Sequence record: PQ341120.1
From: Escherichia phage EAWsc9
Length of the DNA stretch: 64,000 nt
Reading direction: 5' to 3' (one strand)
The notes under the pieces were generated by a model, which was given only the letters and a program-made list of their open reading frames with translations, did no database searches and was not told the DNA's origin. Of this stretch, positions 17,003 to 38,539 are shown one piece after another (the first letter of the stretch is position 1; each line of letters starts with the position of its first letter). The translations under genes and the position numbers were made by a program.

Positions 17003-17749
17003 ATGATTTTATCCGGAAGAACTGTTGATGAACTCAATGAAAAAGTCCAGGCTGCCTTGGCTAATAATTGGTATTTGTTTGGTTCTACTATGGTGTTGCC
17101 GAATACCCCTACAGATAGCAAAGAGCGTTTTTTCCAAACTATGTCCAGCTCGGAAACTCAGATACCGGGCCCGCCTGGGCCAAAAGGAGACCCGGGTGTA
17201 CCAGGACCAAAAGGAGACCCAGGCGGGGATGGAAAGTCTTCTTATCAGATATGGCTTGACTTGGGAAATACAGGAACTGTTGATGATTTTTTAACTGATA
17301 CAGCAGGAAAGAGGGAAAAATCCGAGGTGTTTTGGAGTGGTATAAACGTTCTATTAACTAATGGTACGACTTCAAACATAATTAGTGTTTTAAAGGGGAT
17401 TCCACCGACTGCAGGGACTCTATCTCCGTTTTTTAGAACCACTGATGATAAGTTGTGGCCATATAACCAAGACAGAAGCCTAATGTTTAAACTCAACCTT
17501 ATTGGTAATTTTGCAGGAGCCTCGCAAGCTCGAAGTATAACATTAAATTTCGTTGGAACCAACGGAAACACTTATATACAGAATCGTCCGGAAAATGCTA
17601 CAGATATTTTGTCTTTTACAACGTTCTTTAGCATTGATAAAGATGGGGCAATGGCAACCAATGGTACAGCTATAACTGTTATGCCAAATGGCGGCAACTT
17701 TACAATAACCTCTGCATTGTTAGTAGCCGAACAAACAGTGACTTCATAA
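17003..17749 (+). CDS. collagen-like repeat protein with tail-fibre-type motif and C-terminal globular domain
   Basis: 248 aa; AAAGGAG RBS 8 nt upstream of ATG; GPPGPKGDPGVPGPKGDPGGDG Gly-X-Y repeats followed by GKSSYQIWLDLGNTGTVDDFL; only convincing plus-strand gene in the early block. Confidence 0.6.
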   Translation: MILSGRTVDELNEKVQAALANNWYLFGSTMVLPNTPTDSKERFFQTMSSSETQIPGPPGPKGDPGVPGPKGDPGGDGKSSYQIWLDLGNTGTVDDFLTDTAGKREKSEVFWSGINVLLTNGTTSNIISVLKGIPPTAGTLSPFFRTTDDKLWPYNQDRSLMFKLNLIGNFAGASQARSITLNFVGTNGNTYIQNRPENATDILSFTTFFSIDKDGAMATNGTAITVMPNGGNFTITSALLVAEQTVTS

Positions 17750-17755
17750 ACAAAA

Positions 17756-17773
17756 AAGGGCCATCCGGCCCTT
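17756..17773 (-). terminator. intrinsic terminator for minus-strand transcripts
   Basis: AAGGGCC-GGAT-GGCCCTT stem-loop followed by TTTTTTG on the minus strand. Confidence 0.5.
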
Positions 17774-17967
17774 AGATTGCACTCCAAAAATTATGGAATC
17801 TTATAGTATTGATAGCCCAGTTAACAAACCCGCGAGTTTGTTTGGGAGTTGGTTTGCATATGTACTTATTGTTGATTCGTCTGCCAGTTTCCCGACAGAC
17901 TGCTTCGAGATACCAGCGCCGACCTTTATTAGGTCTTCCGTATGATAAGAAGACCTTCATTTCTTCA

Positions 17968-18978
17968 TTAACGATAATAGGAATTGTGGTTGTCAAGATA
18001 TACCTCTTCAACAAACTTGTCCCAGAACTTCATGTCTACCTTATCAGGCATACCATTCTTAGCAGCCTGGATGGCCAGAACTTCAACTAAATCGACAGTA
18101 TCTTCAAGAAGTTCTTGAACTTCTTTAAATGGCAATTCACCAGCTTTAATCAGCTTAATGATAGAGGCTTCACGCAATGGGAATACCAAGTCACCCGTTT
18201 GGTAGATTTCCATCAATTGATACCCTGCACGATAAGCATGGCTCAGTGCTTTCCAATCAATACCTTCGTTAGCTTCTGCTTTACGAGCACGTTCACCATA
18301 TTCGGCGTCGAGTTTATTCAGAGATTGCTTGAGCTCGATTAATGACAGAGTAGTTTGGTATTTACGACCGAGGACAGTATAGAACGTTTGAGGACCTGTT
18401 TTCTCATGGTTATGAAATACCCATTCGCAGAACTCGTTTTCAGGGAGTCTGTGTTTGATATCTTCTACCTTAGTACGTCGTTGCTTAGCGGAACCATCTT
18501 CTTGATAGTCAACCCATTGTTCAGGAATCTGGTTAACAATTTCCAATACACCACGCAGTGCAGCCAATCGAGAACCTTTAACACCATATTTGGAAGCTTG
18601 CTTACGGACGTACCCCAAATAGGCTTTCATGTTAGTTGTATAGAACCGTGAACGGTTGTCCTGAATAAACTTCCATACATCTGGTAAATCGGATTTGACT
18701 ATCAGGTCAGCCGGGGTGTGAATCATATCCAGAGCAACGGTTTCGCCATCAGCCGCCAGTTTAAAGAAATATTTCAGACTATAAAGTTCATGGTCAACAT
18801 CATCTTTTGTATTTTTGGTAGCCGTGTTATTCGTGTTCAGGTTGGTATGGTTCATCGCGGTTCCGAGCAGGATATCTCGCGGATGAGGAACAAAGATTTC
18901 TTTAAAATCGACATCAGATTCCGGGGTACTTGTTCCATAAAGATGGCTACCGAAGTAGCCTTTCATAATAGCTTTCAT
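17968..18978 (-). CDS. Pol-beta-superfamily nucleotidyltransferase-fold protein
   Basis: start at 18978 (ATGA overlap with upstream stop) gives 336 aa; N-terminal GS-x10-SDVDF matches the hG[GS]x9-13Dh[DE]h signature. Confidence 0.5.
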   Translation of the reverse strand: MKAIMKGYFGSHLYGTSTPESDVDFKEIFVPHPRDILLGTAMNHTNLNTNNTATKNTKDDVDHELYSLKYFFKLAADGETVALDMIHTPADLIVKSDLPDVWKFIQDNRSRFYTTNMKAYLGYVRKQASKYGVKGSRLAALRGVLEIVNQIPEQWVDYQEDGSAKQRRTKVEDIKHRLPENEFCEWVFHNHEKTGPQTFYTVLGRKYQTTLSLIELKQSLNKLDAEYGERARKAEANEGIDWKALSHAYRAGYQLMEIYQTGDLVFPLREASIIKLIKAGELPFKEVQELLEDTVDLVEVLAIQAAKNGMPDKVDMKFWDKFVEEVYLDNHNSYYR

Positions 18979-19427
18979 TCTTTGTCCTCGAAGTGGATTA
19001 CTGGGCACATCTTAGATTTACGAGCTTTGATATATTGAATGAAAACATTTTCTTTAATTTCCTTTCCTTCACGTTTAGCTTTAATGCGTTCCCATTCTTT
19101 TTCTTCTTTACGTAAATCGTACCAGGCCCATAAATTCATTAGACCATACATTAGACCAAATGCTACCGTCAGAATAAGAGCCAGTGTAGCTAGTCCTAAA
19201 ATAAACCCTAAGCCTAAACCGACCGGGGTGCTTAATACAAAGAAATGCTCTAATACACCTGCACCCGCGACAGTTAATCCAAAAACCATACTACCGATAA
19301 AAACGGCACAAACAAAACAAGCCCAAACCATTTTCCAGAAATAAGCACACAAAGAGTGTGGACGAGAATGACGGTCATAAAAACGGTCGTGGAAACGAGC
19401 GTGCCATGAGTTTGTATTGATAATCAT
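18975..19427 (-). CDS. hypothetical membrane protein
   Basis: 150 aa; two to three hydrophobic helices followed by a charged tail. Confidence 0.4.
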   Translation of the reverse strand: MIINTNSWHARFHDRFYDRHSRPHSLCAYFWKMVWACFVCAVFIGSMVFGLTVAGAGVLEHFFVLSTPVGLGLGFILGLATLALILTVAFGLMYGLMNLWAWYDLRKEEKEWERIKAKREGKEIKENVFIQYIKARKSKMCPVIHFEDKE

Positions 19428-19438
19428 AATAATTTTCC

Positions 19439-19999
19439 TTAAGAGTTCATAGTTGGGATAACAGAGTTCAGATAAGAGACTAAAACTTTTAGCTCGTCCT
19501 TAGTAAATACCACTTCACTTTCGCCGTCATGTCTTTGGACAATAGATAACAGGTCACGGCCGTTATGTTGATGCACAGTTAATTCAGTATTATAATCTAG
19601 TTCCTCTTCATCGCCTTCAAACGTTTCACTAGAGCGAATCAGTGCATCTTGTCCCGGAACTTTCCATTCAACTTCCGGTTTACATTCTTCCTGGAAGAGT
19701 TTGAAAATACAATCAAAGAATTTATCAGAATCGCTAATGCTCAGGCATTCTATACCATTTTCCAGATTAAACCCATTTTCATTTTTATAGATATAAGCGT
19801 ATAGCTCATCGTTAATATCGACAGGAGCACTATTACGTCCATTGAGATAGTCAGCTCTATCCAAAACCATTAAATCATAAAGTGGTTTAATATCTTGGAT
19901 AGTCAGTACGATTTTATCGTCTTCTTGGCAAAGCTCGATTGCGTTATTAACCACTTCAGCAGTCAGTTCGCCAAACAATTCAGTTGTTTCAATAATCAT
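19439..19999 (-). CDS. hypothetical acidic protein
   Basis: 186-aa minus ORF. Confidence 0.4.
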   Translation of the reverse strand: MIIETTELFGELTAEVVNNAIELCQEDDKIVLTIQDIKPLYDLMVLDRADYLNGRNSAPVDINDELYAYIYKNENGFNLENGIECLSISDSDKFFDCIFKLFQEECKPEVEWKVPGQDALIRSSETFEGDEEELDYNTELTVHQHNGRDLLSIVQRHDGESEVVFTKDELKVLVSYLNSVIPTMNS

Positions 20000-21266: not shown

Positions 21267-21296
21267 AAAAAAGGTCCACCCGAAGGCAGACCTTTT
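21267..21296 (-). terminator. intrinsic terminator
   Basis: minus strand AAAGGTC...GACCTTT stem followed by TTTTCATTT, just downstream of ORF 21300..21683. Confidence 0.5.
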
Positions 21297-38386: not shown

Positions 38387-38463
38387 TGGTCGGGGTGGTG
38401 GGATTCTAACCCACAACCTACGGTTTAGAAGACCGTTGCTCTATACAATTGAGCTACACCCCG
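38387..38463 (-). tRNA. tRNA-Arg (anticodon UCU)
   Basis: hand-folded cloverleaf: acceptor CGGGGTG/CACCCCG, D stem GCTC/GAGC, anticodon stem ACGGT/ACCGT with loop CTTCTAA, T stem GTGGG/CCCAC, encoded CCA; T loop TTAGAAT and D loop without GG are atypical. Confidence 0.75.
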
Positions 38464-38539
38464 GGTGGCCCCATCCGGACTTGAACCGGAAACCTGCCAG
38501 TTATGAGCCGGATGCTCTAACCAATTGAGCTACAGGGCC
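38464..38539 (-). tRNA. tRNA with anticodon CAU (Ile-lysidine or Met type)
   Basis: hand-folded: acceptor GGCCCTG/TGGGGCC, D arm GCTC-AATTGGTTA-GAGC, anticodon loop CTCATAA, T arm TCCGG-TTCAAGT-CCGGA; one mismatch in anticodon stem; abuts tRNA-Arg. Confidence 0.7.

Follow-up and report, generated by a model that had tools for sequence, protein, structure and literature searches.

Which substrate does the putative nucleotidyltransferase encoded at positions 17968-18978 of Escherichia phage EAWsc9 (PQ341120.1) act on, and to what end? The window analyzed here is a 64,000-nt stretch of this genome, and the gene in question is a minus-strand open reading frame (ORF) that runs from an ATG at 18978 to a stop at 17968, encoding a protein of 336 amino acids that begins MKAIMKGYFGSHLYGTSTPESDVDF. 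A first-pass annotation, made by reading the letters, had noted a Pol-beta signature in a protein of this length, had likened it to a minimal nucleotidyltransferase or a CD-NTase-like enzyme of a family that could not be determined by eye, and had offered second-messenger synthesis, nucleotidylation of a host target, or a step in DNA hypermodification as possible roles. The ORF is real, with G10-S11, D22-x-D24, and a third aspartate, D62, all intact. The catalytic motif spans residues 9-25, FGSHLYGTSTPESDVDF (18904-18954, minus strand), in which F9-G10-S11-x10-D22-V-D24-F conforms to the pattern hG[GS]-x(9-13)-Dh[DE]h, and no other ORF of 60 amino acids or more, in any of the six frames of the window, matches this pattern. 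Because shuffled long ORFs yield approximately 0.3 matches per window, the motif by itself is weak evidence.

Profile searches settled the question of family. Pfam PF10127, "RlaP, RNA repair pathway DNA polymerase beta family," matched with 47.2 bits against a cutoff of 23 (E = 3e-12), the best stretch running from residue 9 to 133 of the protein and from position 26 to 141 of the 249-position profile, and PHROG 388, "nucleotidyltransferase," matched with an E value of 1e-131. A search of a protein database returned 2655 relatives at E ≤ 0.001, with PF10127 on all those listed; an exhaustive search of cluster representatives returned 3248 clusters, of which 838 had E ≤ 1e-30; and tblastn detected a homolog in 1511 phage records. 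Two further matches were rejected. MntA (NCBIfam NF047752) scored 15.5 bits against a cutoff of 60, its alignment being limited to the 17-18-residue GS...DxD motif, and PADLOC PDC-S09 was a sub-threshold match of motif length only.

Genome comparison identified the gene as the ortholog of nrdC.11. Across the 3 kb around it, identity is 99.6% with Yersinia phage vB_YenM_P8 and 86-96% with T4-type phages like JS98 and SP18 (genus Gaprivervirus), and the protein is 99.7% identical to that of vB_YenM_P8; over the best 120 matches, identity ranges from 66 to 100% at 99-100% query coverage, with the exception of one 303-aa cluster representative. The syntenic gene of SP18 bears the name nrdC.11 and lies between the nrdC.x genes and mobD.1/tk. 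P8 and the RefSeq phage vB_EcoM_RZ share this gene order, the annotation in the latter reading "nucleotidyltransferase." With the nrdC-tk position shared by T4, JS98, and SP18 and with high full-length identity, membership in the RlaP family and orthology to NrdC.11 are close to certain; where the eye could not name a family, the tools return PF10127/RlaP and the T4 NrdC.11 orthologous group. Gene, family, and proposed role can all be found in the databases and the literature already, and the presence of the gene is ordinary for a T4-like phage. Orthologs of nrdC.11 had been matched to a nucleotidyltransferase COG as early as 2006 (PMC1524935). Database names for the protein vary among "nucleotidyltransferase," "RNA repair pathway DNA polymerase beta family protein," and, wrongly, "thioredoxin." The last name is carried by dozens of entries for NrdC.11 orthologs and, in PP693301.1 (locus L001), by most of the nrdC.x genes, and the error has spread into UniRef cluster names, apparently by way of the gene-name prefix nrdC.

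In T4, the block from nrdC.11 to mobD.3 can be deleted (PMC9825161), which fits an accessory or counter-defense role. A T4 record of 159,752 bp (OL964745.1), presumably a genome-reduced derivative, retains only the last 35 or so codons of nrdC.11, in agreement with the reported deletability.

The start of the gene was read as follows. A Shine-Dalgarno sequence, GAGGA (18985-18989, minus strand), lies 6 nt 5' of the ATG, and this start codon shares the sequence ATGA with the TGA stop codon of the upstream gene. The upstream gene (18975-19427, minus strand) encodes a 150-aa membrane protein according to its profile match (phrog_944), and the overlap suggests that translation of the two genes is coupled; a "membrane protein" annotation adjoins the nucleotidyltransferase gene in many T4-like records. 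The alternative GTG start at 19008, taken by a mechanical ORF call, falls inside the upstream gene and is unlikely to be the true start. Beyond the membrane-protein gene is a y05I/MobD.1-like gene (19439-19999), and downstream is a gene for a 62-aa protein (17772-17960, minus strand; DUF7279, phrog_8921), the last in the transcription unit. No functional hint came from the y05I/MobD.1-like, phrog_944, or DUF7279 neighbors.

The nucleotidyltransferase gene is the seventh of approximately eight minus-strand genes between two terminator-like hairpins. The minus-strand unit ends at an intrinsic-terminator-like hairpin, AAGGGCCGGATGGCCCTT, which is followed by TTTTTG (17756-17773, minus strand), and a second strong terminator-like hairpin is present at 21269-21296 on the same strand; the two bracket a minus-strand block of about 3.5 kb made up of small genes, with nrdC.11 and the DUF7279 gene at its end. 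A sigma-70-like site, TTTACA-17-TACTAT, follows the hairpin at 21269-21296, at positions 21255-21227; the frequency of sigma-70-like matches was not above that in shuffles. Neither MotA-box middle promoters nor TATAAATA late promoters were found around the nucleotidyltransferase gene. Its predicted placement with the early genes agrees with the nrdC-tk gene order of T4 and with a transcription unit on the minus strand; the timing of expression is read from synteny, since the promoter search found no MotA or late promoters there and sigma-70-like matches stand at the level of shuffles.

Right after the terminator of this unit, a lone plus-strand gene (17003-17749) sits among the minus-strand early genes. 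Its 248-aa product carries a collagen-like GPPGPKGDPGVPGPKGDPG repeat and, at its C terminus, an Sf6-type tail-needle-knob domain (PF16532, E = 3e-32; phrog_1030). Matches to it occur in 294 phage records, 10 of them at 80% identity or more, and most cover the knob domain only; no exact TATAAATA late promoter was found upstream. The gene looks like a recently acquired moron. Elsewhere in the window, two adjoining phage tRNA genes, tRNA-Arg(tct) and tRNA-Met(cat), occupy 38387-38539 on the minus strand.

We then considered whether the predicted structure agrees with an active nucleotidyltransferase. AlphaFold, run on an alignment of 83 sequences with 38-95% identity (alignment A3), returned a model with a mean pLDDT of 88.2. 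Approximately the first 100 residues (18679-18978, minus strand) form an alpha/beta nucleotidyltransferase core that comprises strand 2-8, a turn at G10-S11, helix 11-14, and strand 23-30 starting at D22/D24, followed by strands 44-48 and 61-67, the latter with D62/E64; connecting helices extend to residue 149. The hG[GS] turn, F9-G10-S11, is therefore placed between strand 2-8 and helix 11-14, the metal-binding pair D22-V-D24-F stands where strand 23-30 starts, and D62, on strand 61-67, aligns by hhalign with the invariant D88 of canonical RlaP. A C-terminal helical bundle (residues 213-335; 17974-18342, minus strand) carries the invariant residues K243, H247, and R250. The helical C-terminal region noted earlier is thus borne out by the model, which adds a beta-rich insert that the first-pass annotation had not mentioned.

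Structure comparison confirmed the alpha/beta nucleotidyltransferase fold, and the closest solved folds in the PDB copy searched, which lacked the PfRlaP crystal structure, are those of minimal nucleotidyltransferases, namely HalB (9dbh), 3c18, and kanamycin nucleotidyltransferase; no structure of cGAS, DncV, or OAS was among the structural matches of the model. Many viral models named "nucleotidyltransferase" in BFVD share a common whole-chain architecture with it (TM 0.6-0.75, 20-33% identity). Searches of PDB sequences with the single protein, with a profile, and with the N-terminal domain alone found no relative, and a marginal match to SAMTOR (7vkk; E = 0.12-1.6) was rejected as chance. 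Altogether, PF10127 above its cutoff, PHROG 388, the model, and the structure comparison uphold the earlier assignment to the nucleotidyltransferase fold, and D22, D24, and D62 align with canonical RlaP, so the protein does not fall outside the superfamily; of the two likenesses proposed earlier, that to minimal nucleotidyltransferases stands, while that to CD-NTases failed the tests run.

Conservation points in the same direction. G10, S11, D22, and D24 do not vary in either of the alignments that we built (A2 and A3; 83-86 sequences, down to 34% identity); D62 and D84 are likewise without variation in A3, and in A2 their conservation is 90% or higher. From its invariance in A3, the model, and the hhalign pairing, D62 (codon 18793-18795, minus strand) is presumed to be the third metal-binding carboxylate. 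Also invariant or nearly so are K26, R125, K130, K134, R137, R230, K243, R250, K278, and H247. Since the catalytic residues and many basic residues are retained in this way, the enzyme is almost certainly active, as predicted from the alignments.

The beta-rich insert behaves differently from the rest of the chain. It spans residues 154-208 (approximately 151-210; 18355-18519, minus strand), is built in the model from strands 154-158, 164-168, 184-191, 195-202, and 205-208, and is a possible substrate-recognition element. Conservation is lowest here, with a mean column identity of 0.38 versus 0.57-0.68 in the rest of the protein. Among T4-like orthologs that are 70-95% identical, three sharply different variants of the insert occur, one of them with two deletions, which suggests module exchange or diversifying selection that may have acted on a recognition element.

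The idea that enzymes of this family restore nucleotides to cut tRNAs was reportedly put forward by Burroughs and Aravind in 2016, as cited in a preprint on the family. It is also found in Carruthers et al. 2025, and Iyer et al. 2021 (PMC7824862) predict that phage RlaP puts back, ahead of ligation, the nucleotides that RloC-type nucleases have removed. The preprint itself (December 2025; bioRxiv 10.64898/2025.12.29.696909), which is not peer reviewed and whose in vivo model is a hypothesis, characterizes two canonical Pseudomonas RlaPs, PfRlaP and PaRlaP, whose genes lie between rtcB and rtcA. Both enzymes extend RNA 3'-OH ends by one or two NMPs (or dAMP) and then stop, prefer Mn2+, and are inactive on DNA and proteins; they favor the 3' end left by cleavage in the anticodon loop over the acceptor end, and they partly restore aminoacylation of a tRNA that lacks one anticodon-loop nucleotide. 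Canonical RlaPs also label many E. coli RNAs, including rRNA-sized species and full-length tRNA, with little NTP specificity (bioRxiv 10.64898/2025.12.29.696909). The same preprint raises a 3'-phosphate problem for RtcB and places T4 NrdC.11 in cluster 5 of the PF10127 similarity network, labeled "RlaP of unknown function."

When the NrdC.11 type was compared with canonical RlaPs by hhalign, the N-terminal 87 or so columns alone aligned, with a probability of 32% and an E value of 4.8e-4, and within them GSHLYG was paired with GSRAWG, SDxD with SDYD, D62 with D88, and D84 with E110 (NrdC.11 type and canonical RlaP, respectively).

We examined the genomic neighborhoods of the NrdC.11-type subfamily in a set that held one genome per prokaryotic species, giving 80 bacterial and archaeal loci from many phyla with full-length homologs (33-51% identity), whose neighbors were clustered and scanned with Pfam. 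An RNA-repair gene was present within 6 kb in 18 of the 80 loci, and in 12 of the 44 in which both flanks reached at least 3 kb. These genes encode RtcB (9 loci), Pnkp kinase-phosphatase-ligase (7), Hen1 (6), Ro60/TROVE (5), PrfH-like proteins (3), and Rnl1-like ligase (2), and a separate scan of immediate neighbors found RtcA (Pfam RTC) directly adjacent in two loci. They are mostly adjacent to the NrdC.11-type gene and on the same strand, in several phyla; by our own estimate, genes this rare would occur by chance in approximately 1-2% of windows of the same size. An association with RNA-repair genes is thus found for the NrdC.11-type subfamily but not locally in the EAWsc9 window. Among 80 viral loci, the close T4-like relatives, like the window, have no linked repair gene within 10 kb, and local context therefore gives no support; of the divergent viral loci (40-47% identity), 7 of 25, plus the JGI phage contig L004, carry a gene for Pnkp, Rnl1, Rnl2, or RtcB no more than 10 kb away. 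Elsewhere in its genome, the near-identical phage P8 has genes for Pnkp (301 aa), Rnl1 (378 aa), and Rnl2 (335 aa), all confirmed by Pfam. That operon linkage to RNA-repair genes holds for the long-form NrdC.11 subfamily itself may be a modestly new point.

Four uncultured phage-like contigs (L004, L007, L013, and L028) share a module of an NrdC.11-type nucleotidyltransferase, a protein of about 510 aa with a UDG-superfamily domain, and a ResIII/SNF2 helicase; in L004 and L028, the module is followed by RtcB.

In approximately 24 of the 80 bacterial loci, a canonical RlaP gene of about 270 codons lies 0-170 bp downstream of the NrdC.11-type gene on the same strand (Pfam E = 1e-51 to 1e-81). 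Such tandem loci include L050, L052-L056, L059, L064-L066, L074, L079, and L080, an example being L055:8001-8954 followed by L055:8981-9787, and in Asticcacaulis and one Chlamydiales genome the order is Hen1, Pnkp, NrdC.11 type, RlaP. Catalytic residues are kept in both paralogs. The tandem arrangement argues that the two enzymes are not redundant, and it suggests that they may differ in substrate or product. Phages, this one included, have the NrdC.11 type only, and no second, canonical RlaP was found in the whole phage genome. The frequent pairing with canonical RlaP in bacteria may likewise be a modestly new point.

Altogether, we hold with moderate confidence that the NrdC.11-type RlaP restores nucleotides at RNA 3' ends in tRNA repair; that RNA is the acceptor, how many nucleotides are added, and a role in counter-defense are parts of this proposal that we infer. 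D22, D24, and D62 would hold two metal ions, and one or a few NMPs would be moved from NTPs to the 3'-OH of a broken RNA. The target would be host tRNA from which anticodon nucleases such as RloC have excised nucleotides. RloC takes out the wobble nucleotide, and excision of this type has been proposed to defeat the classic T4 tRNA-repair pathway of Pnkp and Rnl1. In the proposed sequence, phage Pnkp would heal the cut ends to 3'-OH and 5'-P, NrdC.11 would restore the missing nucleotide or nucleotides, and RNA ligase 1 (or 2) of the phage would reseal the tRNA. Because Rnl1 and Rnl2 are 5'-P/3'-OH ligases, the product of the nucleotidyltransferase acting after Pnkp could be ligated by them directly, and this order would avoid the 3'-phosphate problem of RtcB. 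If this is true, NrdC.11 would fill the place of a missing third enzyme in phage tRNA repair; the window brings no new concept, adding one more well-behaved ortholog.

A variant of this proposal, which we put forward only tentatively, takes the NrdC.11 type to be a specialized second activity that partners canonical RlaP, with the insert selecting the damaged ends or the restored nucleotide, and supposes that phages captured it alone. The lone NrdC.11 half in T4-like phages would then serve counter-counter-defense, allowing Pnkp and Rnl1 to ligate tRNAs that RloC-type nucleases have trimmed.

Other roles have to be weighed against nucleotide restoration. An RNA 3'-end nucleotidyltransferase might instead have a purpose other than repair, tailing or tagging host or phage RNAs so as to change their stability or acting at tRNA acceptor (CCA) ends; the fold and family evidence would serve this reading equally, and the broad labeling of E. 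coli RNAs by canonical RlaPs with little NTP specificity and the T4-like phages that have no adjacent repair gene agree with it. However, the operonic neighbors are RtcB, Pnkp/Hen1, Rnl1-like ligase, and Ro60 rather than decay factors, and canonical RlaP favors the cleaved anticodon-loop end over the acceptor and stops after one or two nucleotides, making a non-repair purpose unlikely in our judgment. Nucleotidylation, for instance AMPylation, of a host or phage protein or of a small molecule is the mode of action of MntA, DrrA, GlnE, and the nucleotidyltransferases for aminoglycosides and lincosamides, but matches to such enzymes lie far under their cutoffs (15.5 bits versus 60 for MntA) and extend over motif length only, E. 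coli proteins are not labeled by canonical RlaPs, and the neighborhoods are those of RNA repair and not of toxin-antitoxin systems or antibiotic resistance. We regard it as quite improbable.

Synthesis of a nucleotide signal or oligonucleotide, be it a CD-NTase-like second messenger or a decoy for a host defense made by HalB-like, template-independent oligonucleotide synthesis, is a reading to which we give very little weight; neither a cGAS/DncV/OAS-like fold nor a match to a CD-NTase family model was found for the protein. A step in DNA hypermodification has one point in its favor, that an enzyme with no assigned substrate comes from a T4-like phage and modified DNA is well known in that group, but canonical RlaP is inactive on DNA, homologs are widespread in bacteria beside RNA-repair genes, no DNA-modification neighbors recur, and the gene is deletable from T4, so that this role is hardly credible. 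The three roles suggested in the first-pass annotation, second messenger, nucleotidylation of a host target, and DNA hypermodification, are thus each less supported by family biochemistry and neighborhoods than RNA 3'-end addition; its interpretation holds as to a nucleotidyltransferase fold with aligned catalytic aspartates and gives way as to what the enzyme is for.

Among known systems, HalB of Hailong (PDB 9dbh) is a minimal Pol-beta nucleotidyltransferase that produces oligodeoxyadenylate and is 14% identical to the NrdC.11 ortholog; at 217 aa, it has neither the beta insert nor the large C-terminal bundle, it is a host defense enzyme paired with the effector HalA, and no sequence-family relationship to it was detected. 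Kanamycin nucleotidyltransferase and the MNT/HEPN-type nucleotidyltransferases have small molecules or proteins as acceptors, and their sequence matches remain below family cutoffs. Canonical RlaP (cluster 1a; P. fluorescens and P. aeruginosa) is like the NrdC.11 type in PF10127, in the collinear GS, DxD, third-Asp, and acidic motifs, and in genomic association with RtcB, Pnkp/Hen1, and further RNA-repair genes; the overall plan, an N-terminal nucleotidyltransferase domain followed by a C-terminal helical domain (which in canonical RlaP forms the RNA/NTP cleft and in the NrdC.11 type is seen in the model), appears to be similar. The NrdC.11 type, cluster 5 according to the preprint, differs in being longer by approximately 65 aa, in its beta-rich insert, and in a C-terminal half that cannot be aligned at the profile level; judged by sequence, it is a divergent branch of the RlaP family. 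With the T4 NrdC.11 group, the EAWsc9 protein shares the nrdC-tk position on the early/middle strand, the length class of 328-338 aa, and all conserved motifs, at approximately 82% identity to the T2-type protein and 68% to the 328-aa T4-type proteins. The differences from that group are not substantive: its beta insert is one of the three variants known among T4-like phages, and a membrane-protein gene stands upstream of it, whereas the T4 order (nrdC.11 then mobD; PMC9825161) implies the mobD homing-endonuclease gene in that place.
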